Under the pieces are notes generated by a model. The model was not told where the DNA came from, searched no databases, and was given only the letters and a program-made list of their open reading frames with translations. 64,000 nt of DNA. It comes from Phycisphaerae bacterium (GTDB lineage: Bacteria; Planctomycetota; Phycisphaerae; UBA1845). Numbering within the stretch: position 1 is the stretch's first letter; the number at the start of each line of letters is the position of its first letter. Position numbers and translations under genes: made by a program. The stretch is taken from NCBI GenBank assembly GCA_963666835.2, contig CAXXGO010000001.1:1920001-1984000 (forward strand), read 5' to 3'. Positions 56,647 to 64,000 of this stretch are shown here, piece after piece.

Positions 56647-57057
56647 TCACTCCTCGGGCGCCATCGTGGCGAGTTGCCCATGAGCGACACCGCGCATCGC
56701 TTGAATACGATCGGTGAACGCCTGGACGTCGCGGTGCTTGCCGGCAAGAACGATGGTGACGTAATCTCGGTTCCGATCGATCGTCGAGTACATGGTTCCG
56801 CGAATCAGCGATTGGGCGGCGACGAGGCACTCGCGAAGGCGCGAGCCAACCTCGCCGATCCGGTTGTCACAGACGAATGTCAAAACCACTGACACGCGGT
56901 CATCACTCTCGGCCGGGCGGCTGCAGAGCAGCGCGTCGCGGATCATATCGCGAACCGCCTCAGACCTGTTCTCGTAGCCCATTGCGGCAATGTAACCATC
57001 AAACGCCGCGAGCAACTCGGTGTCGAGAGAAACGCTGAACCGATCAGTCTGGGACAT
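56647..57057 (-). CDS. nikR: NikR-like ribbon-helix-helix regulator
   Basis: RFSVSLD...GYENRSEAVRDMIR and an ACT-like C-terminus ending RGVAHGQL. Confidence 0.75.
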   Translation of the reverse strand: MSQTDRFSVSLDTELLAAFDGYIAAMGYENRSEAVRDMIRDALLCSRPAESDDRVSVVLTFVCDNRIGEVGSRLRECLVAAQSLIRGTMYSTIDRNRDYVTIVLAGKHRDVQAFTDRIQAMRGVAHGQLATMAPEE

Positions 57058-58333
57058 GTTTGCCCTTTCTCGCAGAATGAGCCGCTGAACGGGCTCCCGG
57101 AATCAGCTCGGAGACGTTCAAAGCTGCCGGCCGACATTGCGGCGCCGGTTTGCCGTCTGTCATAAGCGCGACATGCATGAGAGATGCGTTCGGCTCGAAT
57201 ACCACGCTGTGGTGCGTGGCGATTTCGGCGATTGCCACGCTGTCGAGCAGAGTCCACGCTGTTTCACGGTCTAAGTACTGCTGAGCGTCTTGCAGGGTCG
57301 AGGCGAGCACGCTGTCGATCTTCGCGAAACGCCCGCAAGTAACCGGTGGAGTGCGCTTACGGTAGTGGTTGGTACACGCGAGATAGGGCACGTTCGCGTC
57401 AGGGAGTCGTTCGGTAACGCCGTTGGTGTGGGTGTGATCTCCGTCGAACTCGAAGACCGCTGCCGCGGGTCCGGCACCGGTATAAGGTCTCGTTACCATC
57501 ATGTTGTTGCCGACTGTACACGCACGTTTGCGAAGAACCTGCGCAACGTCGGCGAAGGCGGTAGCCGCTTTGGCTGATTCGATTGCGTCGCGGAAGGTGA
57601 GAATGTACGGAGTGTAACCGGTTGCGGTCGTCGGCTTGAAGCCTCTAGCGTCGTGGGTGGCAATCGACACTCCTTCGCTGTTCATTCCCGTGAGGCACCC
57701 GATTACTCCGGGCCACGTGACCGAGACCCAGCCCAGGCGGTCCGAGTCGGGCGGGGCGGCTCGGGCCACGATGATCTGCGTCCCCGCCAGCGCCGGGATC
57801 GGGTACCAGTCCATATTGCGTCCGGCGAGCGTCTTGCCGCCTTTGGTCATAGAGCCCCAAGCGGCGAATGATGAACATCCCAGCCGCGAGAGGTCCGGCA
57901 CGCAGTTGGCCGCGACCAGGTCCTCGTATCGAAAGGCCCGCCCTACCGAAGGAAGTTGGACCGGTCCCCCCGCGCGGGCTTCGAGACCCGCGAGTATGCC
58001 GCGCAGCTCCGCCTCGTAGCGCGGGGCAATCACCATTATGCCGAGCTTGGGCAGGACCGCTTCTTCGTATCCCTGCGGGCTTCCTCCGACGGCACCGCTG
58101 GAAAGGAATCCGTCCCAAAGGTCAACCACGTCCTGTCCGATGAGGTATCCCTGGGCGAAGCCTTGTTTGCTTAGCGTACCCCACAAGCGCAGCACGCGGA
58201 CCCCATCCACGACGCTGAGTTCGCCGGTAACCTGTTTGGGCTCCGATCCGCCCGCCAAAGCCGGCCCGGACAGCAAGGGGAGAATCGCTACGAACAACAG
58301 CCGCGTGAGGTTCCGTTTCGTTGCCATGCTCAT
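57044..58333 (-). CDS. Secreted C45 family (Ntn-hydrolase) acyltransferase/peptidase
   Basis: Signal peptide, autocleavage site G|CSSFAAWG, GRNMDW, GMNSEG and TNHY. Confidence 0.88.
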   Translation of the reverse strand: MSMATKRNLTRLLFVAILPLLSGPALAGGSEPKQVTGELSVVDGVRVLRLWGTLSKQGFAQGYLIGQDVVDLWDGFLSSGAVGGSPQGYEEAVLPKLGIMVIAPRYEAELRGILAGLEARAGGPVQLPSVGRAFRYEDLVAANCVPDLSRLGCSSFAAWGSMTKGGKTLAGRNMDWYPIPALAGTQIIVARAAPPDSDRLGWVSVTWPGVIGCLTGMNSEGVSIATHDARGFKPTTATGYTPYILTFRDAIESAKAATAFADVAQVLRKRACTVGNNMMVTRPYTGAGPAAAVFEFDGDHTHTNGVTERLPDANVPYLACTNHYRKRTPPVTCGRFAKIDSVLASTLQDAQQYLDRETAWTLLDSVAIAEIATHHSVVFEPNASLMHVALMTDGKPAPQCRPAALNVSELIPGARSAAHSARKGKHVPD

Positions 58334-58345
58334 TGTCCTGTTCCA

Positions 58346-58481
58346 CGTAACGCGGGCGTCCTGTCTGCACGATCGTAACGCAGATATCCTGTCTGCAAAA
58401 TCGTAACGCAGACATCCTGTCTGCATCTTCAGACGTTTCGATATTCTACCGCCCATCCAGCAGCCTGGAAGCCTGCGTTAC
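58346..58481. repeat. REP family B: three tandem copies (28-bp period) plus one inverted copy
   Basis: CGTAACGCAGA(T/C)ATCCTGTCTGCA-like units at 58346, 58374 and 58402, and inverted GCAGCCTGGAAGCCTGCGTTAC at 58460-58481. Confidence 0.85.
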
Positions 58482-58903
58482 CGCGGCACCAATAGAGCGG
58501 AAGCGAGTACGGGCTAATCTGCCTCAGTGCGGATGTTCCAGCTTAACGATGCTGCAGGGATGCGATCCGAAATCCGATCCGACCGGCCCGCCGGTGCTCG
58601 ACAACAAGCTCCCGATTACTTACCCTATGTGTAATCGTGCGGGATCAGCCCGGCCACGCGAGCAGAGACCGCGTGCTTTTTTGCAGGAGGCGACGAGCGC
58701 GGGATGCGTCGGGGAAGTCTGGGTCATTTCAAGACGCTTTTCTGCTAACTCAGTCCGGGCGATGGAGCGGGATCCACTCGTTGCGGTCCGGTTGTCCGCG
58801 CGACTGCGCTGCGAGTGTTGCCGCGCGGCTAGTCCCGGGTTCCGTTGGGAACGCGTGACACCGGAGTCGATGGTGTTCTTTGAGCCACACAGGAGATCGT
58901 CTT

Positions 58904-61555
58904 ATGCCTATCAGAACCGAACAGATCATGCCGAATCTTGGACTCAGGAACGTGGCTTCTGTTGCTTGCATGAGGAGTCTGCGGGTGGCGGCGTCTTTCG
59001 TAGTGCTTGTCACGCTGGCTGGATGCCCGGGCGCGTCGCAGGAGGAACCCCCGCCGCTCAACCTGGGTCAGAGCGTGCCGGTAAGCAGTGCCACGGTCGA
59101 CGCAGAGGGCGGGACGATCAACCTTGCGGATGCGACGGGCGTTCTCGAAGGCATTACTATCGAGGTGCCCGCGGGCGCTCTGGAGGAATCGACCACCTTC
59201 AACCTGTCATACCGGCCGATCGAGAGCCACACCCTCGGCAGCGAGTTTAACCCGGTCACACCGGTAATTACCATAGACAATGGCGATGTAACTGCGACTG
59301 AGCCGATCCTGGTCACCGTGCCGGTCGAGATAGCCGAAGACGAGCATGTCATGGCCTTCATCTATGACGAAGAGACCGGCCGGTTCGAGGCTCTCGCCGA
59401 GATTGACCACGACGCGACCTCATTCACGTTCGCAACCACGCATTTCTGTGATATTCTGCTTAACAAGGTCTTCTGGCAGTTGCTGCTCGACGACTTTCCT
59501 TCCGGGTTCCAACTTCAGCATGACAACTGGCAATATGATAACCCGGGGACCTTCTTGTCTTCGGGCGGTATTTGCTCTGGCATGAGCGCCACGGCGTTAT
59601 ACTACTACCTGGAGAAGAAGACCAAAGACAACCAGCCGGAGCTGTTCGGACGGTACGACAACGACGGCGACACGCAGAATCCGACTCCGGATTTCGGCGA
59701 GGACGATTCGAATGCCATCTATATTGCCGCCACTGCACAGTGGTATCGAGAGAACTACCAGTCCTCGAAGCTCGAGTATTGGTACAACATTGCCAGAGAG
59801 AAGGACGACATGTGGACGTTCCTGATGTTCGCGCACGCGATTATGATGACTGATGAGCCCCAATATGTGGCGATCTTCAACGAAGATTATAAGACCGGGC
59901 ACGCTTTGATTGTCTACAAGAAGATGGGCGATACATTGTATGTGGCCGATCCCAATGAGCCCAATATCGAGAACAAAATCACCTACAAGTACGACGCGGA
60001 CGGCGTACTTCACTTCGAGCCGTACAAGTTCCGAACGAGATCCGGAATCTCTGCGACCGATTACACGGAGGTGATCTTCGTGGGACATCGAGACGTTGTT
60101 GCGTGGGAGGATCTGAAGGAACTCTGGGAGAAGATGGACGACGGCACGGTTGGTGATGAGTTCCCCCAGTACCACTTCGTGGTGCTCGAGGAGGACGCGG
60201 CCGGCAACACGACCGAGGTTCCGTTTCTGGACGGCTACAGTACGGAAGAGAGTGAGATCACTCTGAAGATCGTCACGGACGGCCACAAGTGGTTCACTCC
60301 GCGGCTGACCTGGTACGACCAGGATCAAACGGAACGCGGCCAAGTCGAAGGCGAGACCATCGAGGTGACCCTCAGTGACGGGGATAACCGCGTCGGGATC
60401 CTGGCGGAGGCGGATCCGGCGGATCTGGACGATCCGGACGAGGATGACGATTGGGCCTGGACGGGCTTCGACTGGTTCAACGTAGAGCGCAAGACGGATA
60501 ATGCCACGACGATCGGTACAACGATAATCAGTCCCGTAAACGGTTCCACGTACACGACGGATGATACGATTATGTTCAGTGGAACCGGGGCCGACGCCGA
60601 TGGGAACCCGCTTACCGGTTCGTCGCTGGTGTGGACGTCGAACCGCGACGGCGAGTTGGGTACCGGCGAGTCGTTCACGAAGTCGCTATCCGAAAACACG
60701 CACCAGATCACTCTGACGGCCACGGATGCCAACGGGCAAGAGACCATCGATCACATCACTATCATAGTCGGCGCCGGCGCGGAACCGACCATTACGGTAT
60801 GGTACGACGGAGAGCTCGTCGATGACGCGAATATGTTGATCCGTGACGAACCGGTTGTCGAAGTAGGGACTACCGAAAACCTCGAGTTCACCATTAAGAA
60901 CACGGGTGCGGCACCGCTCCAAATCATCGTGCCGCTCGAGATCCGCGAAGAGGACCAAGGCGAGTTTGCGATAGTCCGCGAGCCGGAGGCGACAGTCGAT
61001 CCGGGCGAGTCGACTACGTTCGTGTTGGCGTTCACTCCGCAAGATCTAGGCTACGGCCAGACGTCAATCTACGTCGAGAGCAACGGCTTCCACGGGTACG
61101 ACTACGGCGTCCACATAAACATAATGGCGGATTATCCGTGGACGTACTACGCCTTCATAGATGAGGTGAGCGGGCTGATGTGGCAGAAGAAGTCGTGGCT
61201 GGATACCACCGGATGGGCGGTTCCGCGGGATTGGCAGGACGCTACAGACTACTGTGCAAACCTGGAACTGGCCGGTTACGATGATTGGCGCATGCCCAGC
61301 AAGGATGAGGTCGTGGATATCCTCGGCGGCTATGACGAGGACAACCAGTCATACGCCCATGCTTGTGCGGACTCGCCGAGCTGCCTGGAGTTTGAGTCCT
61401 CGGCGGGCGTTTATGGTTATGAGCATTGGACTTCCACGCCGCACGATGACGCCGGCGACTACTGGTCGGTGAAGTTCTCGAACGGGTACCTCAATCATCG
61501 GGCGGGGGAATACACGGGTGTCGATACGCATTGCGTTCGCGAAAGCGGAGAGTAA
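58904..61555 (+). CDS. Large surface lipoprotein: ZU5-like region, Ig/PKD-like and ASH-like domains, C-terminal DUF1566 (CLec-fold) domain
   Basis: AGGAG RBS, lipobox LAGC, VDAEGGTI...IEVPAGAL...TTHF, WTSNRDGELGTG, FTIKNTG and SGLMWQK...CANLELAGYDDWRMPS...WTST...CVR. Confidence 0.8.
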   Translation: MPIRTEQIMPNLGLRNVASVACMRSLRVAASFVVLVTLAGCPGASQEEPPPLNLGQSVPVSSATVDAEGGTINLADATGVLEGITIEVPAGALEESTTFNLSYRPIESHTLGSEFNPVTPVITIDNGDVTATEPILVTVPVEIAEDEHVMAFIYDEETGRFEALAEIDHDATSFTFATTHFCDILLNKVFWQLLLDDFPSGFQLQHDNWQYDNPGTFLSSGGICSGMSATALYYYLEKKTKDNQPELFGRYDNDGDTQNPTPDFGEDDSNAIYIAATAQWYRENYQSSKLEYWYNIAREKDDMWTFLMFAHAIMMTDEPQYVAIFNEDYKTGHALIVYKKMGDTLYVADPNEPNIENKITYKYDADGVLHFEPYKFRTRSGISATDYTEVIFVGHRDVVAWEDLKELWEKMDDGTVGDEFPQYHFVVLEEDAAGNTTEVPFLDGYSTEESEITLKIVTDGHKWFTPRLTWYDQDQTERGQVEGETIEVTLSDGDNRVGILAEADPADLDDPDEDDDWAWTGFDWFNVERKTDNATTIGTTIISPVNGSTYTTDDTIMFSGTGADADGNPLTGSSLVWTSNRDGELGTGESFTKSLSENTHQITLTATDANGQETIDHITIIVGAGAEPTITVWYDGELVDDANMLIRDEPVVEVGTTENLEFTIKNTGAAPLQIIVPLEIREEDQGEFAIVREPEATVDPGESTTFVLAFTPQDLGYGQTSIYVESNGFHGYDYGVHINIMADYPWTYYAFIDEVSGLMWQKKSWLDTTGWAVPRDWQDATDYCANLELAGYDDWRMPSKDEVVDILGGYDEDNQSYAHACADSPSCLEFESSAGVYGYEHWTSTPHDDAGDYWSVKFSNGYLNHRAGEYTGVDTHCVRESGE

Positions 61556-61673
61556 GACGCGGCAGTAACACTGCACCGCCGCGGTAGATTATGCACGACG
61601 CAGAAGTGGTGGGCTGGTAGAAGTGGAAAGATCGCTTGGACGTGCGGCGTGGTTCTACCCGTAGCGAAGCCTG

Positions 61674-61714
61674 AACGGGTGGCATAGGCCGGTTTGTCGC
61701 CTATGCCACCCGTT
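61674..61714. terminator. Perfect 16-bp inverted repeat between convergent genes (probable bidirectional terminator, possibly REP-derived)
   Basis: AACGGGTGGCATAGGC-N9-GCCTATGCCACCCGTT. Confidence 0.7.
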
Positions 61715-61724
61715 TGGCTTCGGA

Positions 61725-62336
61725 CTACTCGTTGGCGCGGGTGACCACGAACTCGCCGTAGTCGTCTCCGCACTCGATTGCCTTCGTTTGAGTGCACTGG
61801 AAGGTGCGCAGGCCGGTCTTGCCGGTTGGGTCGTACTCGCCGCCGTATGCCAGATCCATAAAGGCTGCACACACGCCGCGAATCATATACGCGCTCGGTT
61901 TCGTCGAACGCCCATAGGAAACTACGTCTGATTCGTAGTAGTCGTAGGCTCGAACCACCATCCGCTCGTTCGGGATGAGTTCGACGATCTCGCTCTTGGC
62001 CCACCCCCACGCGGTGAAGACCGCGAAGGCCCCGTGGAGGACATCCTCGGGGGCTTTTTCGATCTGCGGGGCGACCATGGCCTTCCATTCATCGGAGGTG
62101 ATGATGCCGTAGCCAGTGTGATACCCGCATTCGTGGGCCGCGTTAACGAGGAGCCACTCCGCGGCCTCGAGCGTGTCGTCGTCGACGCTGCGCGTGAGGC
62201 GCTCGGCGAAGCCGTTCCAGAACTTCCCGGGAAGCTGGGTGACGAAGACATTGAATGCCGGGACGAGCCCTTCGTCGTTTGCCACCGCCCGGACCTGTGA
62301 CATTCCATTGATTACTTGTGTTCGATTGATCGCCAT
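61725..62336 (-). CDS. V4R (4-vinyl reductase) domain protein
   Basis: WGWAKSEIV, YYES, MIRGVCAAF and CTQTKAIECGDDYGEF. AGGAGAG RBS. Confidence 0.8.
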   Translation of the reverse strand: MAINRTQVINGMSQVRAVANDEGLVPAFNVFVTQLPGKFWNGFAERLTRSVDDDTLEAAEWLLVNAAHECGYHTGYGIITSDEWKAMVAPQIEKAPEDVLHGAFAVFTAWGWAKSEIVELIPNERMVVRAYDYYESDVVSYGRSTKPSAYMIRGVCAAFMDLAYGGEYDPTGKTGLRTFQCTQTKAIECGDDYGEFVVTRANE

Positions 62337-62352
62337 AATCGAGTCTCTCCTG

Positions 62353-62889
62353 TTAGAGGGTCACTGCCCGGAACAGTGAACGTTGGTCGCCCTTTACAAT
62401 GCTCTCCGTTTCAGCAACGGTGTACGATCGCCGTGGCTTGCCGAAGATGGCTGCCAACATTCCGGCGATGTATCCCCGCGTGATGAAGTTGATGGCCTTC
62501 TTGGACTTGCCCCACTTCTTGATCCAACCTTCGTCAATGTGGGAGTGGAGCAATTCGATCTCGCCACCCTCTACGCCGACGCACTGGGTTCGCAGTTGCC
62601 CCAGGCCGGTAACGGAGTAGTACTGTTCTGCGATGGTAATACGCGTGTTGGTGTCCTGGACGTCATACTCTCGGTAATACCGAGACAGCTCATCGTAGAA
62701 GGTGTCTTCCGCGACGTCGGCGAGCAACTTCTTGCCGTCGAGCATCCCGCAGTCATCAGCAAGCTGCGAGTACAGTGTGGCATAGTGATGACAGTGGAGT
62801 ACGTAGACCTCGCCGTTGATGTAGTGGCGGCAGGCTTTCGGGTCAAACCTGTGGTCGAGCTGGATTCCAGCTTGTTCCATTACTGGCAT
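62353..62889 (-). CDS. V4R-like domain protein
   Basis: VLHCHHY, GLGQL, ITRGYIAGML and ETESIVKGDQRSLF. GGAAGGA RBS. Confidence 0.72.
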   Translation of the reverse strand: MPVMEQAGIQLDHRFDPKACRHYINGEVYVLHCHHYATLYSQLADDCGMLDGKKLLADVAEDTFYDELSRYYREYDVQDTNTRITIAEQYYSVTGLGQLRTQCVGVEGGEIELLHSHIDEGWIKKWGKSKKAINFITRGYIAGMLAAIFGKPRRSYTVAETESIVKGDQRSLFRAVTL

Positions 62890-62905
62890 TTTCGGTCCTT
62901 CCTTT

Positions 62906-63097
62906 CTAGACCATGGTGGCCTCTTTGCCGGTGAGTTCCTTGATAGCGGCCTTGAGCTTCTGGATGTTCTCGGGGGAGTCCGGAGTGTCGGCCGCCTTCG
63001 CCGACATCAGACCAGTCTTCATCGCTAACCTCGTCTTGACTGTGACGCCGCCGGCTTGTTCGGCAAACTTGTACAGTTGAACTAGTTTCTGTCCCAT
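62906..63097 (-). CDS. Small hypothetical protein (63 aa)
   Basis: MGQKLVQLYKFAEQAGG...RLAMKTG...PDSPENIQKLK. GGAG RBS and tight spacing within the operon. Confidence 0.8.
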   Translation of the reverse strand: MGQKLVQLYKFAEQAGGVTVKTRLAMKTGLMSAKAADTPDSPENIQKLKAAIKELTGKEATMV

Positions 63098-63135
63098 AAC
63101 AAAAGGTCTCCGTGTGAAAGCACGTGTTCCTAATC

Positions 63136-63441
63136 CTAAATGGCGGTACCTGTTTCGTTTATCGTACGAATCAAGTCGCCGAATTCGTTCTGAATCTCCT
63201 CCTTTCCTTGCTTGGGGAAGATCGCTTGGCAGTTGTCTTCGCCTTCGACCCCTTTGACGTGTAGTCCGCGGTGTCCGCACACGCGGAAGAACGGGCGCGG
63301 AAAATCCGCGAAGTATTCGAGGTCACCGAGAGCTTTGAGGCCCATGATGGCGTCGCGTGTCCACGGTGTGTCAAACCAGTAGCGATACACGCTGCTACCA
63401 TCGAAGCAATCCTCGACCTTCTTCACTTGGACAATGCGCAT
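63136..63441 (-). CDS. Small hypothetical protein (101 aa)
   Basis: Overlaps the end of the upstream aminotransferase. Motifs EDCFDGS, FPRPFF and VKGVEG. Confidence 0.72.
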   Translation of the reverse strand: MRIVQVKKVEDCFDGSSVYRYWFDTPWTRDAIMGLKALGDLEYFADFPRPFFRVCGHRGLHVKGVEGEDNCQAIFPKQGKEEIQNEFGDLIRTINETGTAI

Positions 63442-64000
63442 GCCGTTAACTGACTCACCGCTGCGAGTCCCTGCTCGAGGTCCTCGTCTCGGTTGAAACC
63501 TGAAACACTGAATCGGATCGTTCCCGCCGGCGCACTACCGATGGCTGCGTGGATAAGCGGGGCGCAGTGCAGGCCCGTCCGGCAGACAATGCCGAAGCTC
63601 TCCTCGAGAACGGATCCCGCTTCATCGACACTCCAACCGTCAACACAGAACGAAGTCGCGCCGATTCGACGCTCGGCGATCCGGGGGTCGAACAGATGGA
63701 CTCCAGGCAACTTCGCAAGCTCGTGGCGGAGGTGGACGGCCAGTTGGTTCTGCCTGGCTCGAAACGGCTCGCCGTGCTGTTCCAGCCAACGCAACGCCGC
63801 CGCAAGTCCGGCTAGAGCGGGGACGTTCGGAGTTCCGGCCTCGAGTCGTGTCGGCATTTCAGCAGGGTGTAAGGCTAGATCGCTACGGACTCCGGTACCG
63901 CCGACAAACTCCTGGCGAAGCGTAAGGTGTGGCGTAACATACAGGGCGCCTGTTCCGGGAGGGCCGTGCAGGCCTTTATGTCCTGTGAAAGCTACCAGGT
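63423..64000 (-). CDS. Class V aminotransferase / cysteine desulfurase family protein (5' part outside the window)
   Basis: Manual extension gives LVAFTGHKGLHGPPGTG (PLP lysine), GGTG, EAGTPN, RTGLHCAP (catalytic Cys) and GTIRFS. Confidence 0.92.
   Translation of the reverse strand, partial: LVAFTGHKGLHGPPGTGALYVTPHLTLRQEFVGGTGVRSDLALHPAEMPTRLEAGTPNVPALAGLAAALRWLEQHGEPFRARQNQLAVHLRHELAKLPGVHLFDPRIAERRIGATSFCVDGWSVDEAGSVLEESFGIVCRTGLHCAPLIHAAIGSAPAGTIRFSVSGFNRDEDLEQGLAAVSQLTACALSK

Follow-up and report, generated by a model that had tools for sequence, protein, structure and literature searches.

What does a compact group of five genes in a Phycisphaerae bacterium do, and do the two V4R-fold proteins that it encodes act as a sensor together with the enzyme and the small proteins beside them? 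The group lies at the end of a 64,000-nucleotide stretch of this genome (hereafter the window; G000:C1:1920001-1984000, where G000 is the Phycisphaerae genome under study) and encodes a cysteine desulfurase-like enzyme (CSD), a 101-residue protein (S101), a 63-residue protein (H63) and two V4R-fold proteins (V2 and V1). The data presented here indicate that this cassette is real and conserved, and apparently undescribed. We propose, with about even confidence, that V2, V1 and H63 form a cytoplasmic sensor that stands alone, that CSD supplies sulfur to its His/Cys site via S101, and that this sensor acts in trans on chemoreceptors. For many chemoreceptors no sensor can be recognised, and the known stand-alone partners are few (CetB and ODP). 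The cassette offers a conserved, compact and testable candidate partner, along with four unannotated protein families. If true, the proposal would extend the V4R fold to metal/sulfur chemistry, introduce a new persulfide carrier and give H63 its first role. Because a cultured carrier of all five genes exists (Paludibaculum fermentans, locus L041), these claims are directly testable. No description of the cassette was found in the open literature, where V4R with cysteine desulfurase and DUF5943 likewise yielded no paper, and mention in subscription papers or comparative-genomics supplements is possible.

The five genes, in window coordinates, are:

63423..64000, minus strand: 3' part of CSD, class-V pyridoxal phosphate (PLP) cysteine desulfurase-like (Pfam Aminotran_5; whole gene G000:C1:1983423-1984673)
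63136..63441, minus strand: S101, 101 amino acids with a single invariant Cys12 (EDCFDG); open reading frame (ORF) without Pfam/NCBIfam match
62906..63097, minus strand: H63, 63-amino-acid helical protein; ORF without family match
62353..62889, minus strand: V2, 178-amino-acid V4R-fold protein (HHalign to V1), counterpart of the N-terminal half of fused relatives
61725..62336, minus strand: V1, 203-amino-acid V4R-fold protein (fold matches of the AlphaFold2 model), counterpart of the C-terminal half of fused relatives

A conserved cassette in many phyla

A first-pass annotation, made from the window sequence alone, had described five tightly packed co-directional genes, and the gene layout bears this out. 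All five minus-strand ORFs are present, CSD and S101 overlap by 19 nucleotides, the later gaps measure 38, 16 and 16 nucleotides by ORF positions, and the motifs RTGLHCAP, EDCFDGS, LHCHHY and AAHECGYHTG are all found in the proteins. The same annotation expected the operon to run on beyond the window, which proved incorrect: the sequence past position 64000 holds the 5' part of CSD and no added operon genes. The CSD gene starts at G000:C1:1984673, 673 nucleotides past the window end, and encodes 416 amino acids from a GTG, its homologues aligning from about residue 38 of that product. Since only this 5' part lies beyond the window and the nearest upstream ORF of at least 120 amino acids is 389 nucleotides off and without a Pfam match, the operon consists of five genes.

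To place these genes in a wider context, genomes in GTDB were scanned, yielding 153 V1 loci, of which the best 80 were kept; locus counts below refer to these 80. At E<=0.001 V1 finds 1433 relatives, and the top 120 share 72-88% identity with it (V1 itself aside); V2 has 440. By record titles, the 80 loci span about 18 phylum-level groups, including Planctomycetota, Acidobacteriota, Armatimonadota, Ignavibacteriota, Thermodesulfobacteriota, Synergistota, Bacillota and Pseudomonadota, and the mean pairwise identity of V1 across phyla is 0.69. The co-occurrence of the genes in other genomes, on which the earlier description depended, is well established, the neighbours of V1 recurring in 64-80 of the 80 loci. 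V2 is present in 80/80, H63 in 78/80 (the two loci without it are cut by contig ends), S101 in 69/80 and CSD in 64/80, and all five genes fall within 4 kb in 62/80 loci; counting only the 50 loci that leave space at either side, the figure is 42. The order H63-V2-V1 is invariant, with H63 directly upstream of V2 in 78/80 loci. CSD and S101 behave as a movable pair (48 upstream, 12 downstream and 3 divergent) whose members overlap or abut in 42/53 loci, and the pairwise identities of the two proteins are correlated (0.81). Overall the cassette is rare, with a patchy distribution, occurring in 2/301 genomes of G000's phylum and in 0/24 other genomes of its family, which suggests that it has spread horizontally.

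Two loci carry in-frame stops in the assembly, one in the CSD gene of L012 (L012:7793-8911) and one in the H63 gene of L059 (L059:9246-9422). A gene encoding 300-326 amino acids, a member of one cluster that recurs at seven loci, accompanies the cassette; it lies between S101 and H63 in L005, L006 and L007 and beside the cassette in L010 and L020. The L010 copy matches DUF3034, and in three cases an MCP (methyl-accepting chemotaxis protein, or chemoreceptor) gene stands directly downstream of V1.

V1 and V2 as paralogous V4R-fold proteins

The V4R fold named in the first-pass annotation, an alpha/beta fold whose four-stranded sheet is covered by helices, agrees with the structural comparisons. 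The AlphaFold2 model of V1 (pLDDT 82) matches DmpR (Z 15.2) and PoxR (Z 15.1; root-mean-square deviation (rmsd) 3.2, 169 aligned), with further matches to MJ1460 (Z 11.2) and Bet3 and a Foldseek match to MopR (E 9.5e-6), and its nearest ESM Atlas clusters are unnamed or V4R/DUF5943. V1, H63 and S101 have no Pfam/NCBIfam match at E<=0.1, V2 has only three weak, unrelated ones below cut-off, and neither V1 nor V2 itself matches PF02830 or PF06505 at E<=0.1. Their membership in the V4R fold is thus a matter of modelled structure and distant relatives. BLAST finds no alignment between V2 and V1, and HHalign pairs them at 97.2% (E 3.7e-11). The two proteins are distant paralogs that have the sensor fold of MopR and PoxR.

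More remote relatives, about 400 amino acids long, prove to be V2-V1 fusions, with V2 as the N-terminal and V1 as the C-terminal half (56 aligned). PF02830 is matched at E<=0.01 by 42/56 of them, the profile of the fused family matches MJ1460 and MopR (MopR 137-200, E 3.6e-5), and two members give weak hits to the MsvR model (43.5 and 20 bits against a cut-off of 220). Eight fused-form loci were retrieved, using one protein. Six of these have an H63-like gene directly upstream (a weak profile match of 33.5%, E 4e-4, from five sequences), and in four an S101-like gene that keeps its Cys adjoins (91%, E 1e-6, three sequences).

The residues that are most strictly conserved form a His/Cys set split between the two proteins. 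H32-C33-H34-H35 of V2 is invariant in 79/79 sequences and His117 is kept in 79/80, while V1 keeps Cys70 (HECGYHTG) in 80/80 and H73 in 78/80. The fused proteins retain H25 (52/56), C26 (51/56), H110 (51/56) and C274 (54/56), equivalent to V2 H32, C33 and H117 and V1 C70, respectively. This set is distinct from the zinc site of MopR, whose cysteines are given as C155, C181 and C189 in the part of the source consulted (PMC9556785). These positions map to N134 (79/79), S163 (69/79) and S171 (78/79) in V2 and to A149, A/G186 and G194 in V1, and the MopR zinc site has therefore been lost, although two of its cysteines persist in the N-terminal half of fused relatives (47/56 and 32/56). The MopR alignment starts at residue 137, so that the phenol anchor W134 falls on V2 Leu113 only by ungapped extension and H106 lies outside it. 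V1 and V2 are whole ORFs (203 and 178 amino acids) without AAA+ or helix-turn-helix (HTH) fusion, and the long relatives inspected are V2-V1 fusions.

H63 as a predicted third subunit

A complex of V2, V1, zinc and H63 was folded with custom alignments; the zinc was unscored and has no bearing on the metal site. The H63-V2-V1 model scored 0.88, against 0.01 for the best of three controls, and the mark applied to such models was reached by 116/157 solved and 2/215 mismatched pairs, counts that apply to this job only approximately. The runs share at least 96% of contacts, with a partner pLDDT of at least 86. In the model, H63 residues 18-34 contact residues 42-49 of V2 and residues 54-65 and 177 of V1, the bridging helix carries a conserved M/T22-R23-x-A25-M26 motif, and replacement of V1 brings the H63 score to 0.00. 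Hence, H63 is predicted to be a third subunit that bridges V2 and V1. The single V2-V1 unit implied by the heterodimer of the first-pass annotation likewise gains support from paralogy, from the fused forms and from this complex model.

H63 has no PDB sequence match and no solved sequence relative. An identity as an XRE-type HTH protein is unsupported, as no HTH family appears among 77 members at E<=1 and no PDB sequence match was found. Fusion of H63 to longer proteins was seen in none of 7999 candidates, which is weak evidence.

CSD and S101 as a probable sulfur pair

CSD matches PF00266 (Aminotran_5) at 246.7 bits, and both the PLP Lys233 and Cys370 (in RTGLHCAP) are invariant in 63/63 aligned homologues. 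With the Aminotran_5 fold, the PLP lysine in an HK motif and the catalytic Cys loop, it has the defining features of a class-V cysteine desulfurase. The nearest NCBIfam model, TIGR01977, gives 330.7 bits (under its cut-off of 377), and the SclA model gives 238.5 (under 525). PLP desulfurases move the sulfur of L-cysteine onto a catalytic Cys, from which persulfide carriers such as TusA, SufE and CsdE accept it.

The first-pass annotation had linked a desulfurase-like enzyme to a sulfur relay, and the tight coupling of CSD to the one-Cys protein S101 is in keeping with this. Cys12 of S101 is conserved in 68/68 sequences and lies in a beta-hairpin loop of a confident AlphaFold2 model (pLDDT 93), whose best fold match is TBP (Z 8.6, rmsd 2.8, 91 aligned), a common arrangement. 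S101 has no sequence match in Pfam, NCBIfam or PDB sequences, its top-listed fold matches are TBP-like (Z <=8.6) with none of the known persulfide carriers TusA, SufE/CsdE, rhodanese or ThiS/MoaD among them, and in the ESM Atlas it meets hypothetical clusters only, at low recognition. We consider S101 a probable persulfide acceptor.

Association with chemoreceptors

The sensing role suggested by the first-pass annotation is favoured by a genomic link that it had missed, namely the presence of MCPs near the loci and across the carrier genomes. Across the 80 loci, signalling genes and a DUF3034 gene are the only neighbours outside the cassette that recur; every other enzyme or transporter is limited to at most 7/81 loci. 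MCPs are found in 78/80 carrier genomes (50/50 and 28/30, the misses being assemblies of 1.9 and 3.1 Mb), compared with a base rate of 74/151 genomes in G000's phylum, and the CheA dimerisation domain and the flagellin family are present in 49/50 and 45/50 carriers, respectively. An MCP gene lies in the retrieved flank of 31/80 loci, within 500 nucleotides in 27. Among genomes with MCP counts, 18/50 loci are flanked by an MCP, whereas 1.75 would be expected from genome-wide MCP density.

The neighbouring MCPs are also unusual in architecture. A simple hydropathy scan of 27 of them (excluding the truncated L029 and including L010 at 1.1 kb) found 12 with a transmembrane (TM) hairpin and no periplasmic domain, 11 with a periplasmic domain, 3 without TM segments and 1 with a single one. 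The hairpin type accounts for 12/27 neighbours but only 1/39 controls from the same genomes (Fisher p 3.4e-5). In a quick tree the neighbouring MCPs are polyphyletic, with at least 13 label changes forced and several sister to an MCP of their own genome. This scatter indicates that the pairing arose repeatedly, and on this quick tree a dedicated clade of partner MCPs is rejected. Neighbours of the cassette further comprise CheW, CheA and MCPs that have sensors of their own.

Several individual loci deserve mention. The sole control MCP of the hairpin type (L105; G032:C66:21100-25600) belongs to a carrier genome in which no MCP adjoins the cassette, and is a possible trans partner. At L083:1-1754 (G129), a fused V2-V1 gene and an H63-like gene follow what appears by eye to be a CheB methylesterase C-terminus. 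Hybrid histidine kinase genes precede the cassette upstream of S101 at L073 and L077 (Synergistaceae), with no CSD near, and a REC-DUF4388 gene precedes it at L081:513-1610. Given the genes that precede the cassette at these last three loci, the module may also feed other signalling outputs.

Proposed mechanism

These observations can be combined into the following model. V2 and V1 would form a V4R heterodimer, as paralogy, fusion and the model suggest, and H63 is predicted to clamp it. Within the heterodimer, H32, C33, H34, H35 and H117 of V2 and Cys70 of V1 may hold a site that contains sulfur, of which an Fe-S centre or a metal with a persulfide ligand is the most likely form. By its family chemistry, CSD would strip sulfur from L-cysteine onto Cys370, and this sulfur would be passed through Cys12 of S101 to the V2-V1 site; at loci without CSD-S101, a housekeeping desulfurase would serve. 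The trimer would then sense a redox, gas or sulfur cue and act in trans on chemoreceptors, at their HAMP or signalling part and chiefly on those without a periplasmic sensor, as CetB does on CetA. Signalling by V4R domains is believed to occur either in cis or in trans, according to the part of a report that was consulted (PMC2253512).

A more far-reaching version of this model would make the trimer a V4R sensor that represents a new class of chemosensory input, with a new type of His/Cys-ligated sulfur cofactor served by a private desulfurase and a new kind of persulfide carrier. The cassette would be a cross-phylum plug-in that time and again recruits host receptors, which subsequently lose their sensor domains, for taxis toward an internal redox or sulfur cue. 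We regard this version as less likely than not.

It should be noted that a number of observations weigh against a sulfur-loaded sensor acting on chemoreceptors. On the sulfur side, two invariant cysteines per V2-V1 heterodimer are too few for a classic Cys4 cluster, and S101 has no match anywhere in 8/10 genomes that lack it at the locus (incomplete assemblies, with several loci near a contig edge), the remaining 2/10 having an S101 copy elsewhere with no CSD within about 1.5 kb. The loci without S101 still retain C70 and HCHH, and for this reason H63-V2-V1 is the core of the cassette, with the sulfur pair a frequent, non-obligatory helper. The four fused-form loci with an S101-like gene have no CSD and no MCP in the retrieved flank. 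The predicted H63 interface shows no higher conservation than other parts of the chains (p 0.26, 0.93 and 0.10), and conservation as high as that of V1 would suit an enzyme as well as a sensor. On the receptor side, 49/80 loci have no MCP in the retrieved flank, and in this genome 0/10 MCPs lie near the cassette and 0/10 are of the TM-hairpin type. A periplasmic domain of their own is present in 11/27 neighbouring MCPs, a cytoplasmic PAS domain in at least 2 of the 12 hairpin MCPs, and no shared docking motif was seen by eye in the hairpin set. Finally, the control MCPs are hand-picked top-scoring rows (39 after dropping 3 duplicates and 3 truncated sequences), the base rate in the MCP statistics comes from one phylum, and the genomes compared are not independent.

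Alternative explanations

Four other explanations were weighed against the sensor model. In the best-surviving of them, V2-V1-H63 would be an enzyme or effector on the chemosensory pathway, either using a Cys/His catalytic site to modify or tune receptors, in the manner of the receptor-modifying CheD, or serving as an output of the pathway. Such a role would suit the near-universal MCP and CheA of carriers, the enzyme-like conservation of V1, the lack of a shared clade among neighbouring MCPs, and a neighbourhood that includes MCPs with their own sensors, CheW and CheA, along with the CheB-like tail seen by eye beside a fused form. It leaves the excess of MCPs without a periplasmic domain (12/27 versus 1/39) unexplained, however, and the closest folds are ligand sensors; we judge it unlikely.

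A related explanation replaces the cofactor with a messenger. CSD would produce sulfide or persulfide in amounts that track the cysteine pool, with S101 as the carrier, and the trimer would read it by reversible persulfidation of Cys33 or Cys70, thus reporting cysteine or sulfur status. The single invariant Cys in each of CSD, S101, V2 and V1 suits a thiol relay of this kind. There are also precedents in the parts of two reports consulted, one proposing an enzyme-plus-V4R logic for V4R-asparaginase systems (bioRxiv 10.64898/2026.10.19.760177) and the other finding that V4R cysteines of MsvR govern redox-sensitive DNA binding (PMC3729527). The four invariant histidines around Cys33, however, suggest a metal, and carriers of the trio only keep every Cys and His without a detectable S101. 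We consider the messenger a quite unlikely reading.

The third alternative, which we consider improbable, is biosynthetic: a V4R-fold enzyme would insert sulfur into a small hydrophobic substrate, and the tie to chemotaxis would reflect lifestyle only. In its favour, D27 is an Fe-S enzyme of V4R/H-NOX-like fold (as far as the consulted part of its description goes), V1 is highly conserved and many loci have no signalling neighbour. Yet the neighbourhood offers no other enzyme or transporter in >7/81 loci, and the tenfold local excess of MCPs and their presence in 78/80 carriers also count against it.

Finally, a selenium relay as raised by the first-pass annotation, with CSD as a selenocysteine lyase and the cassette handling or sensing selenium, is highly improbable, for although the nearest CSD families are TIGR01977 and SclA and the closest CSD paralogue in G000 adjoins a TGA-containing selD, CSD is under both family cut-offs, selD is present in only 31/50 carrier genomes (metagenome-assembled genomes may be incomplete), the scanned flanks contain no recurring selenium gene family, and no in-frame TGA, and hence no sign of selenocysteine read-through, was seen at invariant Cys positions in tblastn alignments of the 80 loci.

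Two selenium-related loci elsewhere in this genome were recorded in passing. A 740-amino-acid open frame at G000:C1:1328197-1330416 (minus strand) appears to fuse an Aminotran_5 desulfurase to SelD, and at C6:1522959-1525294 another desulfurase is followed by a second selD, which contains an in-frame TGA.

An anti-phage role was also considered and rejected. In a PADLOC search, which covers Dnd/Ssp phosphorothioation, the desulfurase alone matches (SspA and DndA models), which is generic, and there was no match for V1, V2, H63, S101 or a fused form.

Terminal hairpin and flanking genes

The cassette ends at a further feature:

61661..61728, minus strand: hairpin with a 16-bp perfect core at 61674-61714 (folding energy versus shuffles)

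The strong hairpin that the first-pass annotation placed at the operon end is indeed there, as a perfect 16-bp stem of -48.1 kcal/mol (z -7.9) whose stability is equalled by 0/200 shuffles. It sits between V1 and a convergent 891-amino-acid gene, has no U-tract and is uncalled by a terminator scan. A repeated element is ruled out, there being one copy only in the genome, and the structure is probably a terminator or a stabilising stem. The convergent gene (58880-61555, plus strand) encodes a protein that is probably secreted and has Ig-like and Lcl C-terminal domains. At 56647-58456 (minus strand), a NikR-like regulator lies directly behind a 470-amino-acid ORF without Pfam match, which presumably resembles an Ntn-hydrolase, judging from its motif CSSFAAWG.

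Comparison with known systems

By the tests that define them, the cassette is not a MopR-type sensor, a TIGR01977/SclA system or a defence system. The sensor (A) domains of MopR, PoxR and DmpR (XylR_N plus V4R) provide the best fold matches to V1 (Z 15) and a sequence match between MopR and the fused family, but they carry an AAA+/HTH output that V1 and V2 do not, and the cassette instead has a paralog heterodimer in which the HCHH/Cys70 set replaces the zinc cysteines. MsvR, a V4R redox regulator of methanogens, and D27, a 4Fe-4S beta-carotene isomerase, share the V4R/H-NOX-like fold and functional cysteines; D27 holds its 4Fe-4S cluster in an H-NOX/TRAPP-like fold, according to the part of the report consulted (PMC13254051). 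V1 and V2 have no DNA-binding domain, and their Cys pattern differs, with only two invariant cysteines per heterodimer.

On the sulfur side, CSD shares the RxGLHCAP active-site loop, the PLP lysine and translational coupling to a small one-Cys protein with the TIGR01977/SclA desulfurases that work with persulfide carriers (TusA, SufE and CsdE). The differences are that CSD falls below both family cut-offs and that S101 has a TBP-like arrangement, with no hit to a carrier family among Pfam, NCBIfam or PDB sequences.

The closest functional parallels, each drawn from the consulted part of a report, come from chemotaxis. In Treponema denticola, the metal-binding protein ODP (TDE2498) is genetically coupled to the sensor-less MCP TDE2496 (PMC7666581). 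The likeness is a stand-alone sensor coupled to an MCP without a sensing module, with metal binding by the cassette being only a proposal, whereas ODP is one di-iron protein on its own, TDE2496 lacks a TM region, and no sulfur machinery is described in that part of the report. CetA and CetB, which serve energy taxis in Campylobacter jejuni, consist of a TM-hairpin receptor and a separate PAS protein (PMC2628428). Here the likeness extends to a receptor of TM hairpin, HAMP and signalling domain co-encoded with a cytoplasmic sensor, the same TM topology being present in 12/27 cassette-adjacent MCPs. The sensor of CetB, however, is a PAS domain, whereas the cassette has a V4R heterodimer with H63, a desulfurase and a Cys carrier, and it has no fixed receptor partner, with none at the locus in this window. 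Taken together, these comparisons suggest that the cassette may work like a bipartite chemoreceptor input built from new parts.

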